DNA of 64,000 bases from an uncultured Pseudomonadota bacterium. GTDB taxonomy: Bacteria; Pseudomonadota; Alphaproteobacteria; Rs-D84. Shown one piece after another: positions 1,042-58,982 of this stretch. Each line of letters opens with the position of its first letter. Position 1 is the first letter of the stretch. A program made the translations under genes and the position numbers. The notes under the pieces are model-generated. The model had not been told where the DNA came from and searched no databases. It saw only the letters and a list, made by a program, of their open reading frames with translations. The stretch spans positions 203,191-267,190 of the forward strand of contig OOHM01000001.1 of assembly GCA_900320405.1 (NCBI GenBank), given 5' to 3'.

Positions 1042-1635
1042 ATGACGGAATACAACCAATTTTTGGATTCTTGGAATTCTGTATTGGGATTGAATACACC
1101 ATCACACCATCACCGTATGACAGATTTTCTAACGGAAGTGTTAAATAATGGGAATCATCGCGGGTTGCTGATGGCGTTTCGGCATTCGGGTAAATCCACC
1201 ATCGTCGGCATTTTTGCGACATGTGTCTTGTTTTTGCGACCCGAAACGCGAATACTGATTTTGTCTGCGCAAACGCACCAGGCCACCAGAATGGTTATGC
1301 ATATAAGAAATATTTTAGAAAATCATCCGTGGTGCCAAAATATGATTCCAAAAAATCGTCGGGAATGGGCCGAAAATAAAATTACCATCAATCGACCGAT
1401 TGGTATTCGTGAACCATCCGTTATATGCCAAGGCATATATGGCAACATAACCGGTATGCGCGCAGATTTGATAATTTGTGATGATGTCGAGGTTCCAAAT
1501 ACATGCAACACCGCACGAAAACGTGCGGCGTTGCGTGAAAGGTTGCGTGAATTAGATTTTGTGTTGGCCCCAACCGGCACAATGATTTATATCGGTACAC
1601 CACACACATTGGATACCATATATCGTACGACCTAG
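1042..1635 (+). pseudogene. phage terminase large subunit, N-terminal ATPase fragment (truncated)
   Basis: Walker A-like FRHSGKST and Walker B-like LIICDDVE in the order typical of a terminase. The ORF stops right after the IGTPHT motif. The remainder of the terminase resumes at ~5000. Confidence 0.55.
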
Positions 1636-2288
1636 GCTTCAGAATTTATATGTGCCAAAGAACTTGTAATCTTGTGCAATTTGTGCAACAACGTTCTGCC
1701 TTCATCACCAAACATCGGCAGATATGTTTCGTAATCTGGCATATCAACTTGAAGTTGTGCACGTGCCCGTTCATTGATTGGTTTGGAAATAATATCGTTT
1801 GCGCTTTCCCAAAGGCTGTACGCCCGCCAAGTGCGAACAATCGTATCAAATTTTTTCAATTCTTCGGGATGATTGTTCAATATGTGTTTTATGGAAACCG
1901 CCCATTCGGGACCAAATCCACGAACAACCGGCATCTGCATAAATTGCTGTAACGCGTCTTGGTCCGGTTCAAAATTATTAATTGCAGATATCAAATCATC
2001 TAAATCGTCGTTTGATATATCGGTCGCGATTGCGGGTTCGTTCATCATACCACCATATGGCAACAATTCACGCGCAATAGAATTCATTGGTGTTTTACCG
2101 TCGCGCAAATTTTTTATATGTTGTACCAACATTTTTCCGGTCGGTAAATCTGCCATTTCGGTCAGAACTTCGTCGGTGGCTTCGTCAACAAAGACACGAT
2201 TTACCGCGCCCCATCCGCCGACGATAACATGCGCCTGACGGTAAAGATTTAACAATTTTTGTGCGATTACACTTGCTTTGGCTTTCAT
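1632..2288 (-). CDS. hypothetical protein (218 aa)
   Basis: Long ORF on the opposite strand within the block that interrupts the terminase. No recognisable motif. Confidence 0.4.
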   Translation of the reverse strand: MKAKASVIAQKLLNLYRQAHVIVGGWGAVNRVFVDEATDEVLTEMADLPTGKMLVQHIKNLRDGKTPMNSIARELLPYGGMMNEPAIATDISNDDLDDLISAINNFEPDQDALQQFMQMPVVRGFGPEWAVSIKHILNNHPEELKKFDTIVRTWRAYSLWESANDIISKPINERARAQLQVDMPDYETYLPMFGDEGRTLLHKLHKITSSLAHINSEA

Positions 2289-2315
2289 CTCGTTTAATCC
2301 CCCCGTTGGTTAATG

Positions 2316-3326
2316 TTATTCTGTTGTGACCATAATAACCTTGTGCATGGTTTGTGCAGAAATTTTTTCTTCTGGTGATACCATTTGACCATAAATTTGA
2401 CCTTTGGAATCTTGGCGCACAACGGCAATGTTTGCAACCACCGTTTGATCATCGCGCAGTGTTTTGAAATCTGCATCAACGAATACCGCCAAATCACCAA
2501 CCGCGGGCACAGATTTAACATCGGCAAAAACATAAGACTTTGCCGGGATGAACCCGCCCAAACGTTTAGAATTCGGGATAAGCGCATAAACGCCACGGCG
2601 ACCTTCAAGATTTGCGGGTGCGGCAATCATTGTTTTATCAGATTTTTTGAATGCGATTGCTTTGCCTTCGGGTTTACCGAACACCGGAATCAATTTTTTG
2701 CGTGCATTGTCATACAATTTTGCACCATATAAATGACCCTGCATATCGCCCAAATCTGCGGCAGAATCACCCGGTACCAAAACCGCCTTGACACGTTCTT
2801 TGACCTTGTTCATTTGTTTGGCAAGTTCGCCCGATTTATACAGGTCTGCGATTCTATCGAACATACCGTCCACAGAATACGCAAACGATTTTGCCAATGG
2901 TTCGATTTCGTTTTTGTATATTTCACGTTGACCGACCTCTATTTTGTGATAAACGGACAGGGTCATCCCTGCATCCTTGGCGGCCTGGGCAATGGTTTTT
3001 CCGGCCTGTTGGCGTATCTTGCGCAGACCACTGCCAAACACTTTCAAACCACTGTCTTCATTATCGTTCATACGGCGTTTGATTTCATCTTGCCATTTGG
3101 TTGCGACTTCGTCCGTGTCTTTGATGAATATATCGGACAGTTTACAACCCAATATATTACAGATATTCAACAATTGTTTCTGGTTTAGACGACGCACACC
3201 CTTTTCAATCTTGGAAACCGCCGACAGCGACAGCCCCGACCGACGTGCCAATTCGGTCATTTTCATACCTGCGCCCAGGCGAATGTTTCGAATATTGTTT
3301 GGAAAAATGATTTCTTCTTGGGCCAT
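2316..3326 (-). CDS. CI-like transcriptional repressor with tandem XRE-family HTH domains and a degenerate S24-peptidase-like C-terminal domain
   Basis: Two HTH_XRE-like segments (MTELARRSGLSLSAVSKIEKG and AQAAKDAGMTLSVYHKIEVG). The C-terminus has a GDLAVFVD-like segment resembling the LexA/CI fold but lacks a clear Ser-Lys dyad. Confidence 0.55.
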   Translation of the reverse strand: MAQEEIIFPNNIRNIRLGAGMKMTELARRSGLSLSAVSKIEKGVRRLNQKQLLNICNILGCKLSDIFIKDTDEVATKWQDEIKRRMNDNEDSGLKVFGSGLRKIRQQAGKTIAQAAKDAGMTLSVYHKIEVGQREIYKNEIEPLAKSFAYSVDGMFDRIADLYKSGELAKQMNKVKERVKAVLVPGDSAADLGDMQGHLYGAKLYDNARKKLIPVFGKPEGKAIAFKKSDKTMIAAPANLEGRRGVYALIPNSKRLGGFIPAKSYVFADVKSVPAVGDLAVFVDADFKTLRDDQTVVANIAVVRQDSKGQIYGQMVSPEEKISAQTMHKVIMVTTE

Positions 3327-3430
3327 ATAAAACTCCTTAGATAAATCTTGACAAAATCATAGTCAATTTTAGAAAACTTGGCAAGGAAAAATTTTACCAA
3401 CCATCACCAACTAATAACACCGACCAGTAT

Positions 3431-4981
3431 TTATATATCCATATCGTCGGGGATTTCGGTCAAATCAATAGGTGCCGCATCGTCGGATTGTGGCACAGGT
3501 GCGTTTTCTTCGGCAAATTGTATATGACCACGATTTGCCATTTCATTCAGGTTATCAAACAAACTGAATTCCGGCAAAAACGCCACCCGTATAGTATCGG
3601 TTTTCCCGTGACGGTTTTTCCCGATGATAATATCGGCCTTGCCTTTGGCTTTCTCCATACGATTTTGCCACGAATCAACAGATTTTTCATTTGGGGTGTT
3701 TGATATGCGATATGACGGGTCGCGATTTGCCAAATAGTATTCTTCGCGATATGTGAACATAACAATGTCGGCATCTTGTTCAATAGACCCCGATTCACGC
3801 AAATCCGACAATTGCGGGCGTTTATCATCACGCATTTCAACACTGCGTGATAATTGGGACAGGGCAATAACCGGAACATCGAATTCTTTGGCCAACATTT
3901 TAAGACCGCGCGTAATTTCCGACAATTCTTGAACACGATTGTCTTTGTTTTTACCGCCCGGTGAAGTCAATAATTGCAAATAGTCAATCACGATAAGTGC
4001 AATTCCGTTATATTTGCGGGCCAATCGGCGCACACGTGTGCGAATCATTGGAACCGACATACCCGGCGTATCATCTATGAACAATGGAATACGACCAATG
4101 GCATCTGCAAACTGGGTCATTTTAAGGAAATCTTCATCGGTCAACGACCCGGCCAGCATGGCATTAGAAGGTATTCGTGACTGTGAAGACAGCACGCGTG
4201 CCGCCAATTCAGATTGGTTCATTTCTAAACTGAAAAACGCGACCGCACCAGTGTATTGTGGATTTGCACGTCCCGAAAATATTGCGTTTGCCGCATTAAA
4301 TGCGATATTCATCGCCAATGTGGTCTTACCCATACCTGGACGTCCCGCGATAATAAGCAGATTCGATTTATGCAAACCACTAATGGCCTTGTCTAAATCG
4401 GTCAGACCCGTTGTTAATCCGGACAATTTGCCGTCCGCCTTGTACGCGATTTCGGCCTCAATCAGTGCGCTTTTCAATGCGGTTGCAATTGGTGCGACAT
4501 CGCGTCCAATATCGCCGGTTGTTGCCATATTGAATAACATTTGTTCGGCGTTTTCTATTTGTGATGCGACCGGTTTATCTAAATCTTCGACAAATGCGTC
4601 GTCGGTTATTGTCTGGCCAATTTGAATCAGTTCGCGTCGCATTGCGTTTTCGTGAACAATTCGACCATATTGTTCAACATTTACGACGGTTGCCCCCGCA
4701 CCCGCCAATTGTGTTAGATAATCTATTCCGCCAACAGATTCCAATGTTCCCTGTTGGTCCAGATAGTTTTTAACGGTGATTATATCAAACGGAATTCCGG
4801 CCGCGAATTGTCGCAACGCCAAACGATAAATTTCTTGGTGCGCGGGATGGGAAAAATCTTCGGCCCGCAAGAATTCAGAAATTTTTTCTAATGCACGATT
4901 GTTGGTCAGCACCGCGGCCAACACGGCTTGTTCGGCCTCTATATTCGTTGGTAAAGTTTTGGGAGTAAAGTCCATGTCCAA
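3431..4981 (-). CDS. dnaB: replicative DNA helicase DnaB
   Basis: 516 aa. N-terminal DnaB domain and RecA-like core with Walker A GRPGMGKTT. Acidic C-terminal tail as in alphaproteobacterial DnaB. Confidence 0.85.
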   Translation of the reverse strand: MDMDFTPKTLPTNIEAEQAVLAAVLTNNRALEKISEFLRAEDFSHPAHQEIYRLALRQFAAGIPFDIITVKNYLDQQGTLESVGGIDYLTQLAGAGATVVNVEQYGRIVHENAMRRELIQIGQTITDDAFVEDLDKPVASQIENAEQMLFNMATTGDIGRDVAPIATALKSALIEAEIAYKADGKLSGLTTGLTDLDKAISGLHKSNLLIIAGRPGMGKTTLAMNIAFNAANAIFSGRANPQYTGAVAFFSLEMNQSELAARVLSSQSRIPSNAMLAGSLTDEDFLKMTQFADAIGRIPLFIDDTPGMSVPMIRTRVRRLARKYNGIALIVIDYLQLLTSPGGKNKDNRVQELSEITRGLKMLAKEFDVPVIALSQLSRSVEMRDDKRPQLSDLRESGSIEQDADIVMFTYREEYYLANRDPSYRISNTPNEKSVDSWQNRMEKAKGKADIIIGKNRHGKTDTIRVAFLPEFSLFDNLNEMANRGHIQFAEENAPVPQSDDAAPIDLTEIPDDMDI

Positions 4982-5822
4982 TATAGTATATGAAAAAAAT
5001 GTTTTTTCAACGCCTTTTTTATGTGGCTATGCCGAATTAAAAATTCCGATAATGGATGGGTGCGGAAATTCGGCGTGGCCGGCGATTTTTCCGCCCGAAA
5101 AAATTGCCCAAATTCGGGAAACGGTTGGGGAACGGCATTTTTCTGCACAAATGATGTTGGAATATGTTGCGCCCGATAAAATCCGTCTTGACCCTGGAAC
5201 CGTACATTTTTATACGGACGAATTCGACCCGCATACCGCGCGCATTGGCGAACATTTAATATCGGGTGCGGCCATTTATTGGGACCCGTCGGGGGGTCGG
5301 CGCGGCGGCGATAACAGTGTATGCGTTCTTGTCTATCGCGATGATAACAATCGATGTGTATTTATACACAATATAATGTACATCGTCGTCCCAGATGAAA
5401 CAGATTACCCATTGGCGTATCAATGTGACCGGGTTATCGATTTTGTTCGTCACAATCGTTTGCGCCAAATCACAGTAGAAACGAACGGTATCGGTGGCGC
5501 GTTGCCCGAAATTATGCGTGACATTATAAAGCGTGGCGGTGGCGGAATAACCCTTAATTCGATAACAAATTCGCGACGCAAAGAAGATCGCATATTGGAC
5601 GCATTGGAACCATTAATGTCAACGGGTCGATTGTTTGCACATCGGCGAATCACCCAGACCCCATTTATATCGGAAATGTTGGCTTGGTCGCCAATGGGCG
5701 GTGCCGAACACGATGACGGATTGGATGCGGCGGCCGGTGCAATTGCGTGCACGCCGATACCGGTGCGACCAATACTTGGTGGCGTGCCACGATATACCGC
5801 AAATACAGATTTCAAAATTTAA
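4899..5822 (+). pseudogene. phage terminase large subunit, C-terminal nuclease fragment (true start uncertain, probably ~5040)
   Basis: FSAQMMLEYV motif and an RNaseH-like nuclease region with conserved acidic residues (DPSGG...D, HDDGLDA). Continues the reading logic of the 1042..1635 fragment. Confidence 0.55.
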
Positions 5823-5843
5823 CACACAACAAAAGGATAAAAT

Positions 5844-7070
5844 ATGAAATATGATTTACAACAAATGTACATTCGCGCGATAAATATGCGTGAACCTTGG
5901 ATACGGCGTTGGGCGGATGCGCGCCGTTATACGATGCCCACAACGGATGAAGATTTGGCAACACTGTTTGACGCGACCGCATCTGATGCGGCGGCGGGTT
6001 TGGCGGCGTGTATGTATTCATTACTGACACCGCCAGAATCTTTGTGGTTGAACCTGGTTCCGGAAAGTCCGGATTCGCCCGACCCGGCGGTTGCGACGGC
6101 CGCATTGCGTGCAAATTTGAATGATTCGAATTTTTACACCACGATTCATCAATGCTATATGGATTTGGTGACATTGGGCACGGCGTGTCTGTTTATGGCG
6201 GAATCGCCGATTGGCGCGTCCAGTGCGTTTACATTTACCGCGATTCCAATTACAGACATTGCGATTTTGCCGAACGCGATATTCCATACTGCGACGATTT
6301 CCGGGGCGGAAATTCTGCGCCGATATCCGGAATGGACGCCGCCACGCGATATTGCGGAAAAAATAAAACAAGATGGCGAATATCAAATGCGTCTGGTTCA
6401 ATCTTTGGTTGATACAGATTTTACCGCATGGGTTGATGTTGGTGGTGATTTTGAAAACAATGTAGTGGCACGCGGAACATTTGAAACGAATCCATATATA
6501 ATTTTCCGTTGGTCGGTCGCCAGTGGCGAATTATACGGCCGTGGACCGATTCTGCGCGCATTGCCAGATATTAAAACGGCGAACAAAGTCGTAGAATTGG
6601 TTTTGAAAAACGCAACCATCGCGGTCAGTGGCATATGGCAGGCCGATGATGACGGCGTCATAAACCTTGGCAATATCAATTTGACCCCCGGTGCCATTAT
6701 TCCCAAAGCGGTGGGCAGTTCGGGTTTGACCCCACTTGCATCGGGTGCAAATTTTGATGTGTCGCAAATCATTTTGAAAGATTTGCGCGAACGCATAAGG
6801 CACACATTATTGGCGGACAGAATAGGGCTGTTGTCTGACAAAGAAATGACCGCGACAGAAATTTTGGCACGCAATGCGGATATGCTGCGTATTTTGGGTG
6901 CAACATATGGACGGTTATTGCACGAATTTATTCGGCCCCTGTGTGACCGCGGATTGCAAATATTGGCGCGTCGCGGCGTTATCGATAAAATATCGTTGCA
7001 CGGGGATGCAGAATTAAAATACATTGCACCAATCGCACAAATGGTTTCTGAAAATAATACATTGATTTAA
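5844..7070 (+). CDS. putative phage portal protein
   Basis: 408-aa ORF directly downstream of the terminase nuclease fragment, with a phage-like SD. Assigned from position and size. No strong motif. Confidence 0.4.
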   Translation: MKYDLQQMYIRAINMREPWIRRWADARRYTMPTTDEDLATLFDATASDAAAGLAACMYSLLTPPESLWLNLVPESPDSPDPAVATAALRANLNDSNFYTTIHQCYMDLVTLGTACLFMAESPIGASSAFTFTAIPITDIAILPNAIFHTATISGAEILRRYPEWTPPRDIAEKIKQDGEYQMRLVQSLVDTDFTAWVDVGGDFENNVVARGTFETNPYIIFRWSVASGELYGRGPILRALPDIKTANKVVELVLKNATIAVSGIWQADDDGVINLGNINLTPGAIIPKAVGSSGLTPLASGANFDVSQIILKDLRERIRHTLLADRIGLLSDKEMTATEILARNADMLRILGATYGRLLHEFIRPLCDRGLQILARRGVIDKISLHGDAELKYIAPIAQMVSENNTLI

Positions 7071-38318: not shown

Positions 38319-39847
38319 ATGCTGCATACATCAGATTTTGATTTTGAATTGCCACCGGAATTAATCGCGTCGCATCCATTGGAACGACGCGATGCTTCGC
38401 GTATGTTGGTTGTTGACCCAAATGGCATTTGCGAAGTTCCCCTCCTCGGAGGGGTGCCGGGTGAAACCCGGTGGGGTGGGGGTAAAAAAGATATTTGCTT
38501 AAATTTACCTAAAAACCCAAAATTAAAACAACGTGCACGCGAATTGCGCCAGGCCGGCAGTTTACCCGAAGCCTTGCTGTGGAATGAAATAAAAAATAAG
38601 AAGTTAAACGGTCTTGATTTTGATAGACAACATATCATAGGCAATTATATTGTAGATTTCTTCTGCCCGCAAATTGGGTTTGTTATTGAAATAGATGATA
38701 AAACCACACACGACCTTAAAGGTGCGTATGATGAAAAACGTGATAAATATCTTAAATCATTGAACCTTACTGTGATGCATATACCGGCTTCAGATGTGCT
38801 TAAAAATCCGGCATCCGTGGCACAATGGATTTATAATGTTGTTTTTGATACCCCCACCCCGGCGTGCATTGCACGCCACCCCTCCGATAATCACCCAAAA
38901 AATGCTATGCATTTTTCGGGACCCGATGGAGGGGAACTTGTTATTGCCGATAAATATATTCGTGATTTTTTGGACTACCTGAAACCTGGTGATGTGGTGG
39001 TGTTTAACAATTCACGTGTTATTCCCGCGCGCTTTGATGCGGATGGGCACGAAATAACATTACATACCGCGGTGGATGATAAGAATTGGTGGGGGCTGTG
39101 TAAAAAGTTTAACAAAATCAATATTGGCGACACATTGACAATGCGTGATGGCACAACAATTACGGTTGTTGATAAAGATGATGAAAGTGGACTACTGCTG
39201 CGTTTTAATTGCGACAATGTTTTTGATGTGTTGAATCGTGTTGGCAAAATGCCACTGCCACCATATATGAAGCGCGATGCCGAAGTGGCGGACCAAACGC
39301 GTTATCAAACGGTCTATGCCGACCCGTTGGGTTCTATGGCGGCACCAACCGCGGGTTTGCATTTCACCGACGAATTGATGGCGGAAATTGAAAATCGCGG
39401 TGCAAAAATAGTAAAAATTACATTGCATGTTGGCGCGGGAACATGGATGCCGGTTAAAACCGAAAATTTAAACGAACATAAAATGCACAGTGAATGGTGC
39501 TGTATCACACCCGCCCAGGCGGAAATAATAAACAACGCCACGCGTGTCATTGCCGTTGGAACAACATCACTGCGCACGCTGGAAAGTGCCGCCCGAAACG
39601 CCACCGGTGGGGCGCGTGTCGCACCGATTTGCCAAACCACAGATATATTTATCACACCGGGATATAAATTCCGTGTGGTTGATGTGTTGTTAACGAACTT
39701 TCATTTGCCAAAATCTACATTGTTTATGTTGGTGTCGGCATTTTCGGGCCTGGATGAAATGAAGGTCGCATATGCCCACGCCGTTGCGGAAAAATATCGT
39801 TTTTTCAGTTATGGCGATTGTTGTTTGTTATTTAGAAAGGAATCATA

Positions 39848-39848
<1 letters not shown>
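38319..39848 (+). CDS. queA: S-adenosylmethionine:tRNA ribosyltransferase-isomerase QueA carrying an in-frame ~146-aa insertion with a DUF559 endonuclease-like domain
   Basis: N-terminal FDFELPPELIASHP and a C-terminal region collinear with canonical QueA (VFNNSRVIPARF, HVGAGTW, VGTTSLRTLES, TNFHLPKSTL). 509 aa versus about 350 aa for typical QueA. Confidence 0.8.
38448..38886 (+). mobile_element. putative in-frame selfish insertion: DUF559 (Vsr-like endonuclease) cassette bounded by 38-nt GC-rich inverted repeats
   Basis: Left end cggaggggtg-ccgggtgaaacccgg-tggggtgggggta (38448..38485). Right end tacccccacccc-ggcgtgcattgcacgcc-acccctccg (38849..38886), which is the reverse complement apart from a swapped central palindrome. 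The DUF559 motifs ALLWNEI, FDRQH, YIVDFFCP, VIEIDD lie in between. Confidence 0.5.
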
Positions 39849-41785: not shown

Positions 41786-42769
41786 ATGGCAAAAAAAGAA
41801 ATCGAAGTAATCGACCGCGGTGGTGCCAAAACCGTCGCAAAAAAAACATCGGTTATCACGCATGCAAAACGTGTGTTTTTAATCGTGTCAATTATATGGT
41901 TGGCGTTTGTGGCATGGTTTCCGTTGTATGTGAAATCGCACTATGCGGGGCCGATAAAAAAATCTATTGTTGTATCAATGTTTTTTGATTTGCAACGCAA
42001 CATTGTGGAACAATATGAAAAGTTATTGGGCGGAATTAAAAACGCAATCAATTTAGAAAAGCCAGTTGGCATTGCAATTGAAAAAGTAAAAATTGTTGAA
42101 AAACAGGTTGATAAAGTGACCGATACGACCGCCAAAGCGAAAGAGCAAACCGCCAAGGCGTCCGAGACAACCGCCGGTGTCAAAGGATTAACGGGTTTGG
42201 TCAATAAATTTGGTGTAAAAACCGATGGTGTAGATAAAGTCGTTAACCAGGCCGATTCTGCAATCGGTAAAGCAAACGCCGCGGTGGACAAAGTGGACAA
42301 TGTTGCCAAAATGGTGAACGATAAATTGGACACTGTTGAAAAAGAATTGGTTAAATTGACCCAAATCGAAGTCGATAAAATGATTGATGAAGCCGTCAAA
42401 AAACAAATCGACAAAAACACCGGTGGATTGGGCACAACATTGCTGACCAATTACGGAATTAAACACGTGTATCCGTGGCGTCCGTCTTCGTGGCCGGTGG
42501 CGGTGAAAATCTATAACGATTTGGAAAAATCCAATGTTGGCGTAGTGCAAATTTTGACCCGCACCGTGAACAAATATTTTGATTATGTTGCGTGGGGGTT
42601 GGTAATTGCGGCATGGGCGGTTGGTCTTTATATCTGGATGTTCATATACAAAAAATACAAGGCCACAATTGCACCGTTCATTGTATGCCCGCGTTGCGGA
42701 CACGCGTTTGCGGACCGGCGTACGGCTATGAGTATGCTGAAAGTATTGCAGCCGTGGAAGTGGTTTTAA
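41786..42769 (+). CDS. hypothetical membrane protein with central amphipathic helical repeats and C-terminal CPRCGH zinc-ribbon-like motif
   Basis: Strong SD aaggag. N-terminal TM helix, apolipoprotein-like KxxDxV repeats, two C-terminal TM helices. Confidence 0.5.
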   Translation: MAKKEIEVIDRGGAKTVAKKTSVITHAKRVFLIVSIIWLAFVAWFPLYVKSHYAGPIKKSIVVSMFFDLQRNIVEQYEKLLGGIKNAINLEKPVGIAIEKVKIVEKQVDKVTDTTAKAKEQTAKASETTAGVKGLTGLVNKFGVKTDGVDKVVNQADSAIGKANAAVDKVDNVAKMVNDKLDTVEKELVKLTQIEVDKMIDEAVKKQIDKNTGGLGTTLLTNYGIKHVYPWRPSSWPVAVKIYNDLEKSNVGVVQILTRTVNKYFDYVAWGLVIAAWAVGLYIWMFIYKKYKATIAPFIVCPRCGHAFADRRTAMSMLKVLQPWKWF

Positions 42770-42770
42770 T

Positions 42771-42795
42771 AAAACGCCCCATTTGGGGCGTTTTT
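42771..42795 (+). terminator. rho-independent terminator
   Basis: aaaacgcccc-attt-ggggcgtttt followed by T. Confidence 0.7.
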
Positions 42796-42856
42796 AACAA
42801 TATTTATTTTTTACTTGCAAAAACGAAATTTGTATGTAAGAATGTTCCACGCAATT

Positions 42857-42933
42857 GCGAGCGTAGCTCAGTTGGCTAGAGCGCAACCTTGCCAAGGTTG
42901 AGGTCGAGGGTTCGAGCCCCTTTGCTCGCACCA
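42857..42933 (+). tRNA. tRNA-Gly (GCC)
   Basis: Cloverleaf with anticodon loop ttGCCaa, T-loop ttcgagc and CCA encoded. Confidence 0.8.
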
Positions 42934-43202
42934 AAATTTTAAAAACCACCGTCAGGTGGTTTTTTGATTTTGCCGGCAAAGGGGCGAGAACCCGCAGGGT
43001 TGCGAGGCGAGGTGGCATTGCCACCGAAGTACTTTGCTCGCACCAAAATTTTAAAAACCACCGTTAGGTGGTTTTTTAATTTTGTCTGCAAAGGGGCGAG
43101 AACCCGCAGGGTTGCGAGGCGAGGTGGCATATGCCACCGAAGTACTTTGCTCGCACCAAAATTTTAAAAACCACCGTTAGGTGGTTTTTTAATTTTGCCG
43201 GC
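42921..43202 (+). repeat. tandem array (2.4 units of 112-113 bp), each unit ending with the tRNA-Gly 3' terminal 13 nt (tttgctcgcacca) followed by an intrinsic terminator hairpin
   Basis: tttgctcgcacca recurs at 42921, 43033 and 43146. The terminator aaaaaccaccgt(c/t)aggtggtttttt is present 3 times. Unit body: ggggcgagaacccgcagggttgcgaggcgaggtggcat(a)tgccaccgaagtac. Confidence 0.8.
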
Positions 43203-43281
43203 ATAAATGAACGACTGCCTTTTAATTTTATGGCAATGGCGGGATTTTTATTCTAAGATTCGATTATCTAAAGGGGTTTTT

Positions 43282-44391
43282 ATGACACAGATATTATCAG
43301 AAGTTAATTTGGATTACAGCGATATTTTAATTCGACCAAAAATGGGTATAAACCTGAATTCGCGACGTGATGTGAACCTGACGCGGGTTTTCAAATTCAA
43401 ACACGGCCAGACGCGCACCGGTCTTGGCGTTTTTAACGCCAATATGGCAACGGTTGGAAACTTTGTTGTCGCGAAAAAGTTATTGTCGCGCGGGATGTTC
43501 GCAACAATTCATAAACACTACAATATCGATGAAATCGGTGAATTTTTGAATTTGTGTCGGGCCGAAAATATTCCTTTGGACAATTTGTTTATAACAATCG
43601 GGTTAAAAAATGCCGATGCGGAAATTCAAAAATTAAAAGATTTAGAATCAAAATATAAATGGACGAATCCGCGCAATATATGTATCGATGCACCGAACTT
43701 TTATATCCCAAATGCGTTGGATGTGTTGATGCGTGTTCGTGACGAATTTCCGGATGCAGTGATTATGGCCGGAAATATCGCCAGTGGTGACATATGTCTT
43801 AAATTATTAGATTATGCGGACATTATAAAATGCGGCATAGGCAGCGGTTCCGCGTGTTTAACGCGTCGCCAGACGGGTTGCGGAACGCCAATGGTATCAT
43901 TAATTATTGAATGTGCCGATATTGCGCATTCTGTGAACGGTCATATTTGCGCGGATGGCGGAATTGTCGATGTTGGTGATATATGCAAGGCGTTGTGTTT
44001 GAATGCAGATTTTGTTATGGCGGGTGGAATATTTGCCGGTTCGGACGAAGCCGCGGGTAATGTCATCGAAAAACATTTCGAAACCAATGAAATTGTGGAT
44101 GGTGCGCGCGTTGTTCAAACAAAATATTTCAAGGCGTATTACGGAATGTCATCTGAATATGCGAACAATAAATTTGCGGGCGGTATGGCGGACTATAAAA
44201 CATCCGAAGGCCGCGAATTGTTGATACCATACACCGGGCCGATTGACAAAATATTGCAGGATATAAATGGTGGAATTGCATCTTGTTGCACATACATCGG
44301 CGCGACCACGGTCAAACATATGGCAAAATGTGCCACTATAATACCGGTTCATAACCAATTAAACCGCGTGTTTGAAAAATATTCTGTATGA
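43282..44391 (+). CDS. guaC: GMP reductase (IMPDH/GMPR family, no CBS pair)
   Basis: TIM barrel with GIGSGSACLTRRQTGCG catalytic Cys loop. Size fits GuaC. Confidence 0.65.
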   Translation: MTQILSEVNLDYSDILIRPKMGINLNSRRDVNLTRVFKFKHGQTRTGLGVFNANMATVGNFVVAKKLLSRGMFATIHKHYNIDEIGEFLNLCRAENIPLDNLFITIGLKNADAEIQKLKDLESKYKWTNPRNICIDAPNFYIPNALDVLMRVRDEFPDAVIMAGNIASGDICLKLLDYADIIKCGIGSGSACLTRRQTGCGTPMVSLIIECADIAHSVNGHICADGGIVDVGDICKALCLNADFVMAGGIFAGSDEAAGNVIEKHFETNEIVDGARVVQTKYFKAYYGMSSEYANNKFAGGMADYKTSEGRELLIPYTGPIDKILQDINGGIASCCTYIGATTVKHMAKCATIIPVHNQLNRVFEKYSV

Positions 44392-58731: not shown

Positions 58732-58753
58732 ATTTTTGGTGGGGCCACAGGGA
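58732..58753. repeat. 22-nt direct repeat of the tRNA-Lys 3' end region (atttttggtggggccacaggga), preceded by its own terminator hairpin
   Basis: Identical to 58902..58923. The two copies are 170 bp apart. Both are preceded by aaaaccg-N-cggtttt hairpins. Confidence 0.7.
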
Positions 58754-58906
58754 TTGCACATCCCAACACTGCGTGTTGGGACCCTTCCACTCGTATGGTT
58801 CAAACTGCGCAGATGCTTGTTTTCACCAACTATCGTGTCGAACCCACGGGCTCTCGTCTTGTTTCCCCGGGGCAAAAATAAAAACCGCATAAGCGGTTTT
58901 GATTTT

Positions 58907-58982
58907 TGGTGGGGCCACAGGGACTCGAACCCTGGACCCAATGATTAAAAGTCATTTGCTCTACCAACTGAGCTATAGCCCC
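58907..58982 (-). tRNA. tRNA-Lys (TTT)
   Basis: Reverse complement gives a cloverleaf with anticodon loop ctTTTaa, T-loop ttcgagt and CCA. Confidence 0.85.

Follow-up and report, generated by a model that had tools for sequence, protein, structure and literature searches.

A conserved RtT-like element in tandem copies behind tRNA-Gly of a Candidatus Enterousia-like alphaproteobacterium

The tRNA-Gly locus and its tandem array

The subject of this analysis is a tandem array of 112-bp repeats that follows a tRNA-Gly gene in the genome of a Candidatus Enterousia-like alphaproteobacterium. The locus was studied within a 64-kb stretch of contig OOHM01000001.1 (positions 203,191 to 267,190; referred to here as the window), and coordinates without a locus designation are those of this window. 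The neighbouring genes are queA, tgt, the gene for a 327-aa protein (p327), a GMP-reductase/IMPDH-family (guaC-like) gene, a gene for a TPR protein, and lysS. The tRNA-Gly(GCC) gene, with its CCA encoded, occupies positions 42857-42933 on the + strand (ARAGORN; Rfam RF00005, 65.9 bits), and its last 14 nt, CTTTGCTCGCACCA (42920-42933), represent the first copy of the repeat core. The array itself extends from 42920 to 43203 with a period of 112 bp, 2.5 copies, and 95% matches according to Tandem Repeats Finder (TRF). The 13-mer TTTGCTCGCACCA is located at 42921, 43033, and 43146 and at no other site in the 64 kb, the chance expectation being 0.2 when up to one mismatch is allowed. Each 13-mer copy is followed by the terminator-like hairpin AAAAACCACCGTNAGGTGGTTTTT plus a T-rich tail (42941-42964, 43053-43076, and 43166-43189; terminator scan). 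The array, the recurrence of the 13-mer, and the terminators after tRNA-Gly had been described in a first-pass annotation of this DNA and are borne out by TRF, ARAGORN, Rfam, and the terminator scan. Its statement that the array is not CRISPR-like also holds because the whole 112-bp period is repeated without unique spacers, and Pfam revealed no cas domains nearby.

A putative promoter of tRNA-Gly (TTGCAA, 17 nt, AAGAAT; 42815-42843, + strand) was read from the sequence. The arrangement TTGCAA...TAAGAAT/TAAAAAT is also found 5' of tRNA-Gly in the relatives L001, L005, L006, and L027; the promoter scores below the threshold of the consensus scan, and it is therefore called putative here. Downstream of the tRNA, the first intrinsic terminator (42941-42970, +) comprises a 10-bp stem, including an A/T extension, followed by a T run (terminator scan and fold). 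It precedes unit 1, which is 70 nt long (42976-43045, +) and which scores 98.1 bits with covariance model R1 (see below); its structure is based on alignment A1, pair counts and, for pairing P3, RNAalifold. From 5' to 3', all on the + strand, unit 1 consists of the P1 5' strand GCAAAG (42976-42981), GGGCGAG (42982-42988), P2 formed by AACCC/GGGTT (42989-42993/42997-43001), GCGAGGCGAG (43002-43011), P3 formed by GGTGGC/GCCACC (43011-43016/43020-43025), GAAGTA (43026-43031), the P1 3' strand CTTTGC (43032-43037), and the tail TCGCACCA (43038-43045). A second terminator (43053-43082, +; terminator scan) separates it from the 71-nt unit 2 (43088-43158, +; 96.4 bits with R1), with P3 at 43123-43128/43133-43138 and the core at 43145-43158, both on the + strand. 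The two units differ by a 1-nt indel in the P3 loop (ATT in unit 1, ATAT in unit 2), and the spacer reads gccg in one case and gtct in the other. The third terminator and the end of the array lie at 43166-43203 (+; TRF, terminator scan, and sequence), where the repeat breaks off 3 nt into a would-be third unit (gccggca, then taaatg).

Unit number and loop type vary between assemblies that encode identical GuaC proteins: L080 contains a single ATT unit, L079 two ATAT units, and both L081 and the window one unit of each type. Repeats of 112 bp are shorter than or near read length, which might suggest an assembly artefact or a chance repeat. The probability of this explanation is practically negligible: L079 and L081 independently show the two-unit array, ten other assemblies carry such arrays as well, and the copies differ at fixed positions. 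An assembly artefact is thus refuted by assemblies L079-L081 and by the differences between the units. The ~56 bp that make up core and terminator are near-identical behind the tRNA and behind each unit of the window. Such repeats would be a substrate for unequal recombination, by which the array may have arisen. Species whose two terminators differ from each other (L001, L024, and L021) possess a single unit.

Conservation, folding, and origin of the unit

With the GuaC-like protein as query, 30 syntenic loci were retrieved (78-92% identity), all of them from metagenome-assembled genomes of rumen or gut origin that are assigned to Candidatus Enterousia or to uncultured Alphaproteobacteria. 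As these loci were fetched via a neighbouring protein, the set was not selected for presence of the unit. Another 45 loci came from a pattern scan of metagenomes; L052 and L074 among these proved to be chance matches and not units. Together, the 30 genome loci and ~43 metagenome contigs contain 66 full units, 59 of which are distinct; alignment A1 comprises 58 sequences, and compensation of pairs was counted over 51 distinct sequences. Model R1, which was built from the units and used to locate them in the genome loci, finds units at 18 of the 30 loci. Genomes of Enterousia (order Rs-D84) are only ~0.75-1.0 Mb in size with a coding density of ~90% (PMC12306168), and this makes conserved non-coding DNA notable in this lineage.

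Sixty-three of the 66 units begin 30-46 nt, corresponding to one terminator hairpin, behind a copy of the core. For 49 of them this is the core of the tRNA itself, for nine that of another unit, and for five that of an islet junction (see below). Units always share the strand of tRNA-Gly. The unit was never seen apart from this tRNA, and the unit pattern had no match in viral contigs. In the unbiased genome set, pairwise identity amounts to 0.98 for the 3' part of the unit (GAAGTAC plus core), to 0.85 for the 5' part, where nearly all of the loss is due to an 11-nt indel, to 0.59 for P3, and to 0.68 for spacer and terminator. Invariant flanks in combination with a fast-changing yet always paired P3 indicate long-term structural constraint rather than the recent spread of one sequence. 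The unit persists with or without an adjoining islet. Units that are cut off from the tRNA by an islet have defects at invariant or paired positions in 4 of 5 cases, compared with 11 of 49 (Fisher p = 0.018, from a post hoc comparison of a small sample of sequences that are not independent), a hint that the constraint on the unit depends on tRNA adjacency.

Evidence for a maintained structure is centred on P3, whose positions are 96% paired and in which five of the six pairs exhibit changes on both sides. None of 500 shuffles reached the observed covariation score, and pairing dropped to 28-52% when the partners were slid against each other. Variants of the stem include GGTGGC, GGCAAC, GGTTAT, GCCGGC, GGGGGG, GGCGGT, and GGGAAC, and RNAalifold predicts P3 independently. 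The hairpin ggtggc/gccacc of the first-pass annotation is thus real, conserved, and compensated, but unlike a tRNA T-arm it has no T-loop (7 nt, UUCRANY); its loops are 3-7 nt long, variable, and without a conserved motif. P1 (GCAAAG/CUUUGC) is 98% paired with one covarying pair, A-U to U-A, in the CAATG...CATTG lineages, while P2 (AACCC/GGGTT) is invariant. P1 pairing can close the unit such that UCGCACCA (8 nt) is left as a free tail.

tRNA minihelices and tRNA-like structures, such as those of viruses (TLS) and mascRNA, present a helix followed by a single-stranded NCCA that is derived from, or mimics, the acceptor end. The unit shares with them a helix and a tRNA-derived NCCA 3' end, and it might be a minihelix in the literal sense, in which a GCGAG/CUCGC acceptor stem stacks on a T-arm-like hairpin and carries ACCA for recognition by RNase P, CCA-adding enzyme, or GlyRS, perhaps with aminoacylation. 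GCGAG/CUCGC does correspond to the first five acceptor pairs of tRNA-Gly, followed by ACCA, and the minimum free energy (MFE) folds of some units use it. Similar features occur in two elements described below: that behind tRNA-Arg of L045 contains a copy of the full 7-bp acceptor stem (GCGCCCA...TGGGCGC-GCCA), and in the MFE fold of that behind tRNA-Lys the 5' GGGG pairs with CCCC just before ACCA. Nonetheless, we consider the literal minihelix improbable. The acceptor-like stem gcgag/ctcgc postulated initially shows no compensatory change, its A-U pair is broken in 11 of the 51 distinct sequences, and lineages with the 3' end CCCGC or GCGAG retain the upstream GCGAG, which disrupts the pairing. 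Moreover, the 9-10 nt between hairpin and 3' strand preclude stacking of the helices as in tRNA, a covariation-backed coaxial acceptor/T helix is missing, the best-supported fold has an 8-nt free tail, and ARAGORN and RF00005 report only the true tRNA and are silent on the units. The literal minihelix is thus not supported, whereas a tRNA-derived helix with an ...ACCA tail stays the theme.

Several other candidates were rejected. Indels of 11 nt and of 1-4 nt between units rule out a coding sequence, and the 8-nt palindrome AAGTACTT, considered as a protein site, is not kept in the CATTGC lineages. No known Rfam family matches the units, either at the gathering threshold in the whole window or at E ≤ 10 in the interval 42700-43350, and the E ≤ 10 list contains no hammerhead, twister, pistol, or hatchet ribozyme and no riboswitch.

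In six relatives (L009, L010, L011, L015, L019, and L020) tRNA-Gly is inverted relative to p327 and guaC, and in four of them (L009, L015, L019, and L020) units are present on the strand of the tRNA. A leader or attenuator for guaC is ruled out by this inversion of the tRNA and, where present, of the units; the likeness between P3 and the terminator stem (GGTGG) is limited to some lineages, which also counts against an attenuator. A related possibility is that the array is a fail-safe terminator stack insulating the guaC-like gene from the tRNA promoter, the unit body being a mere passenger of the duplication. Three near-identical strong terminators within 250 bp upstream of a + strand gene would fit, and duplication of 'core + terminator' accounts for the period. 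We regard this possibility as very improbable since it leaves the cross-species conservation of the unit body and P3 covariation unexplained, most relatives have a single unit, and the tRNA points away from guaC in the six loci mentioned.

Based on its sequence, the unit is a four-part chimera made of an inverted tRNA segment, a direct T-arm copy, a unit-specific core, and a direct copy of the tRNA 3' end. When the T-arm/acceptor 3' strand of the tRNA (GCAAAGGGGCTCGAACCC) is reverse-complemented, it agrees with the 5' part of the unit, GCAAAGGGGCGAGAACCC, at 16 of 18 positions, a value reached by none of 2000 shuffles. In some lineages the inverted complement attains 12 contiguous nt, CGAGCAAAGGGG. 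AGGGTT(G)CGAG, the second part, is a direct copy of the T-arm 5' half (positions 50-59). The third part, GCGAGGCGAG - P3 - GAAGTA, is specific to the unit, and the fourth is a direct copy of tRNA positions 63-76, i.e. of its last 14 nt with the CCA. Lineage-specific variants of the tRNA (CCCCATTGC[T/C]CGCACCA) are mirrored in the 3' copy as well as in the 5' complement.

Fragments of the unit, consisting either of its first ~15 nt (GCAAAGGGGCGAGAA) or of a copy truncated in P3, recur as a boundary that is followed by unrelated DNA in L014 (2794), L020 (~1830, -), L025 (5925), L027 (4536), L016 (5857-5921), and L028 (4416-4480). In L016 and L028 this boundary sits immediately upstream of guaC. 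They may be remnants of older units that have broken up, or they may mark a second preferred breakpoint.

Attachment core, islets, and other elements behind CCA ends

Copies of the 13-mer bound islets of 0.9-2.9 kb in L027, L053, L059, L066, and L072. The 2.9-kb islet of L027, which carries a RhuM/Fic gene, is situated between the unit 3' end and a second core, and the DNA to the right of this second core is the same as that found immediately behind the unit in L016 and L025. One and the same 1.8-kb islet, encoding a metallophosphoesterase and a 66-aa ORF with a weak match to DUF6538, is found between tRNA and unit in L059 and after the unit in L053, with cores on both sides in each case. More junctions, in which ...GTTCC is followed by C(C)TTTGCTCGCACCA, exist in L025, L066, L068, L070, and L072. 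Judged from these junctions, the tRNA end and the unit end both act as attB, and the 13-mer is a genuine attachment core in the relatives.

The cargo of the islets is of the defence type (Fic, GmrSD, RhuM). In L053 (4458-4658, +), L059 (8181-8381, -), and L027 (~1622) the islets open beside the att core with a short ORF starting MFKKCKANCQAN.... The match of this ORF to DUF6538, which we take to be an integrase N-terminal domain, has an E value of 7e-4, which misses the Pfam cut-off. Its 19 homologues in the database measure 44-108 aa and diverge in their C-terminal tails. Either the remnant of an integrase N-terminus or a small DNA-binding protein could be encoded here. No integrase was detected by Pfam among 40 ORFs scanned from the window or in the islets, and the 66-aa ORF as query retrieved only the 44-108-aa homologues. 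With respect to a viral origin or attP, the islet-junction pattern yielded one chance match in a flavivirus-like polyprotein, and the DUF6538-like ORF had no viral relative.

These observations bear on the initial suggestion that the array could consist of stacked att-site scars left by repeated insertion and excision at tRNA-Gly. Comparison of the relatives corroborates the att core, but with units at 18 of 30 loci and a 3' part that is 98% identical as against 68% for the spacer, the units are not mere scars. The same duality emerges from a comparison with att repeats at tRNA and transfer-messenger RNA (tmRNA) genes and with cis-mobilizable elements (CIMEs). Common features are direct repeats of the 3' end of the target RNA gene and stacked att-flanked modules downstream of it; a direct repeat of the tRNA 3' end that bounds inserted DNA was found in L027, L053, L059, L066, L072, L025, L068, and L070. 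By contrast, the DNA between the repeats does not have the character of foreign or decaying DNA, as the unit body is conserved in 18 of 30 species-level genomes and has a covarying hairpin. A 112-bp module that has no genes and is as conserved across species as the tRNA differs from CIMEs, and a covarying hairpin together with an inverted tRNA copy is not expected of an att scar. Many tandem att-flanked modules without integrase have been reported at tRNA and tmRNA genes (PMC3146451, PMC5704250).

It is possible, though in our view unlikely, that the unit is itself a miniature att-flanked, CIME-like islet, the smallest module of the stack at tRNA-Gly, which is kept or spread by selfish selection at the DNA level. 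In that case, proteins would bind to the GCGAG repeats, and the hairpin would be what is left of a terminator or else be recognised as single-stranded DNA. Such a role is compatible with the 13/14-mer being a real att core that bounds the islets of five relatives (L027, L053, L059, L066, and L072), with their defence-type cargo (Fic, GmrSD, RhuM) and the weak DUF6538 ORF, with the well-documented tandem accretion at tRNA and tmRNA genes, which includes decayed elements lacking an integrase (PMC5704250, PMC3146451), and with direct repeats of 17-19 nt from the T-loop on at tRNA-Arg and tRNA-Lys of the window. However, neither the 40 window ORFs scanned nor the short homologues of the DUF6538-like ORF provide an integrase, a circle of only 112 bp is below the size that a classical intasome can handle, and the unit body is unrelated to the ends of the islets. 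Scars should decay, yet the flanks of the unit are ~98% identical across species and P3 changes by compensation, and the unit was detected neither away from tRNA-Gly nor in viral contigs.

Elements of the same design as the Gly unit follow two further tRNA genes of the window. Behind tRNA-Arg(ACG) (29243-29319, -), an element of ~135 nt (29063-29196, -) comprises a terminator, GGGGATTTGAACCC (a reverse-complement-like T-arm copy), GGGTTCGAACC, a 75-nt insert with hairpins, and a directly repeated copy of the tRNA's 3'-terminal 19 nt, AATCCTTCTGGGTGCGCCA. The element of ~133 nt (58737-58869, -) behind tRNA-Lys(TTT) (58907-58982, -) comprises, in this order, a terminator, GGGG..., CGAGAGCCCGTGGGTTCGA, and an insert, after which the last 17 nt of the tRNA are repeated directly as TCCCTGTGGCCCCACCA ahead of another terminator; its motif CGAGAGCCCGTGGGTTCGA is shared with CGAGAACCCGCAGGGTTGCGA of the Gly unit. 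Both elements have a segment complementary to the T-arm or 3' strand of the tRNA, then GGGTTCGA, a hairpin insert, and a copy, in direct orientation, of the last 17-19 nt through CCA. In L071 and L045 tRNA-Arg is followed by the same design with other inserts.

Additional sequences adjoin tRNA or tRNA-like CCA ends. Directly after the CCA of tRNA-Ala(GGC), at 16813-~17200, lies a ~110-nt palindromic sequence (tccgtcttcgcttcgctccgtcgcg ... cgcgacggag ... gcagacgga), which is also found directly after the ACCA of the Gly unit in L021 (5485-5840), L047, and L051, with related half-sites in L027 (~4540) and L020 (~1790-1830). The palindrome is followed by a short ORF starting MFYVY... that appears GIY-YIG-like by eye, and it adjoins a tRNA(-like) ...CCA each time, as if it were a small mobile element targeting such ends. 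Another recurrent element of ~100-150 nt after ...CCA has the composition (C)AATTTTCGTTA - hairpin - AAGAAAATT.AGTG.C.CGCCGTAGC ... GCGAAGGCGGNC and is located after tRNA-Ala(TGC) in the window (61054-~61160) and after tRNA-Gly or the unit in L016 (3706-3790), L025 (5795-5920), L027 (4391-4530), and L053 (4087-4250). Its GGCGCGCCGTAGC part resembles the first 13 nt of a tRNA gene, i.e. the acceptor 5' strand and the start of the D stem. Finally, the sequence CCCTTCGCCAAGGCT..GG.TGGCAGGCCAT adjoins two different tRNA-like CCA ends in two genomes, after the Arg element of the window (29020-29062, -) and after the ACCA of the Gly unit in L063 (616-670).

Elsewhere in the window, an imperfect tandem repeat of three 21-bp copies (42113-42175; TRF, 69% matches) lies within the 327-aa ORF upstream of tRNA-Gly. 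The QueA homologue (38319-39848, +; 509 aa) has DUF559, presumably an endonuclease-like domain, at residues 68-174 ahead of its queuosine-synthesis domain, which is an unusual insertion or fusion. Phage-like genes amid housekeeping genes at 1042-7070 encode terminase N-terminal and RNaseH-like fragments (in separate ORFs), a head-tail connector (portal) protein, and an HTH regulator, which suggests a decayed prophage or a remnant resembling a gene transfer agent (GTA).

Relation to RtT and proposed role as RNA

RtT repeats behind tyrT of E. coli have been known since the late 1970s, and Rho-dependent termination occurs inside them. The tyrT/tyrV locus of E. coli K-12 contains 3.1 copies of a 178-bp repeat, one unit of which is annotated as the small RNA RttR. 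Each RtT unit ends in the tRNA-Tyr 3' 19-mer AATCCTTCCCCCACCACCA and holds the T-arm 5' half AAGGTTCGA as well as the complement GGGGAAGGAT, which forms a complementary pair with ATCCTTCCCC. The array behind tRNA-Gly has the same architecture. It likewise consists of tandem repeats immediately distal to a tRNA gene and on the same strand, and its units end with a tRNA 3' segment through CCA (14 nt here, 19 nt in E. coli). They contain an upstream segment complementary to the 3' end (GCAAAG(GGG) here, GGGGAAGGAT in E. coli) and repeat the T-arm 5' half directly (AGGGTTGCGAG here, AAGGTTCGA in E. coli), while the rest of the T-loop is replaced with an unrelated, hairpin-bearing insert. By contrast, there is no detectable similarity at the level of sequence or covariance model. 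The Rfam model of RtT, RF00391, gave four matches of 133-138 bits on the E. coli tyrT locus, which served as positive control, and none in 42700-43350 at E ≤ 10 or in the whole window at the gathering threshold. Because the model does not match, the Gly unit is an analogue of RtT and not a member of this family. Further differences concern the period (112 bp versus 178 bp), the intrinsic terminator that accompanies every unit here, the type of tRNA and host (Gly in Alphaproteobacteria versus Tyr in Enterobacteria), the use of the 3' end as an integration site here, and the absence of a tpr-like ORF. What is new is thus an RtT-type variant that is unrelated in sequence; RtT-type distal repeats and the accretion of islands at tRNA 3' ends were known before.

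Taking these data together, we propose that a conserved RtT-like element of ~60-75 nt, which is linked to tRNA-Gly and most likely acts as an RNA, was recently duplicated in tandem to give the array; we give this proposal an even chance of being correct. We judge equally balanced the more specific set of features predicted for this RNA: that it is read from the + strand, originates from terminator read-through, undergoes tRNA-like 3' maturation, and exposes a free ...UCGCACCA tail on a body closed by P1. As no promoter of the unit's own was found, transcription would have to run from tRNA-Gly through its terminator. The tRNA-like 3' end of the RNA would then be trimmed, much as RtT RNA is released from the tyrT transcript of E. 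coli, leaving an ...ACCA terminus that resembles the one of tRNA-Gly and that might, for instance, imitate uncharged tRNA 3' ends or serve as their decoy. With regard to the two readings offered in the first-pass annotation, genes for small RNAs mimicking the tRNA 3' end come closer than stacked att scars. Expression of RtT RNAs has been reported (PMC4147364; PMC3318445, citing Bosl and Kersten 1991), and according to a preprint, roles in processing of the tyrT transcript and in the stringent response have been suggested for them (bioRxiv 10.1101/2024.07.17.603846, citing Bosl and Kersten).

Several points weigh against an RtT-like functional RNA. The unit is missing after tRNA-Gly in 10 of 23 relatives with this tRNA in range and is therefore dispensable. 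A strong intrinsic terminator separates the tRNA from each unit and a promoter scan revealed no promoter-like site ahead of the units, so RNA levels may be low. P2 is precisely deleted in 21 of the 59 distinct units, the covariation of P1 probably goes back to a single event and is confounded with tracking of the tRNA's own variant, and counts of G-U versus A-C are too few to assign the strand. The locus is a hot spot of island accretion, making a DNA-level or selfish role of the unit possible. Finally, the elements behind tRNA-Arg keep the design and not the insert, which could reflect a recurrent mutational process rather than function.

Functional RNAs are also known from external transcribed spacers at the 3' end of tRNA transcripts (3'ETS). 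The sponge 3'ETS-leuZ comes from the trailer, upstream of the operon terminator, and has no copy of the tRNA 3' end. In the model proposed here, the unit would likewise be an RNA from the trailer of a tRNA transcript; unlike 3'ETS RNAs, it is preceded by a terminator and ends in a tRNA 3' copy.

The RtT-type design is found after at least three tRNAs (Gly, Arg, and Lys) in a sub-1-Mb genome. It is tempting to speculate, albeit doubtful at present, that such elements are not peculiar to enterobacteria but form a general and overlooked class of tRNA-operon products, namely hairpin RNAs that combine the 3' third of a tRNA and its complement with an insert at the T-loop position and a free NCCA, and that they serve as isoacceptor-specific mimics of uncharged tRNA while providing a harmless second attB. 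If this were true, they might act toward factors of the stringent response, toxins, or processing factors.

The element described here is independent of RtT and unrelated to it in sequence, comes from a distant, genome-reduced alphaproteobacterium, and is under purifying and compensatory selection. This suggests that the RtT architecture is either functional or the product of a general mechanism operating at tRNA genes. With only 60-75 nt, the unit is a much smaller and more tractable model for RtT-like elements. Moreover, a tRNA-derived 3' end that serves as an alternative integration site outside the tRNA bears on how islands are stacked and on the automated calling of att sites and islands.

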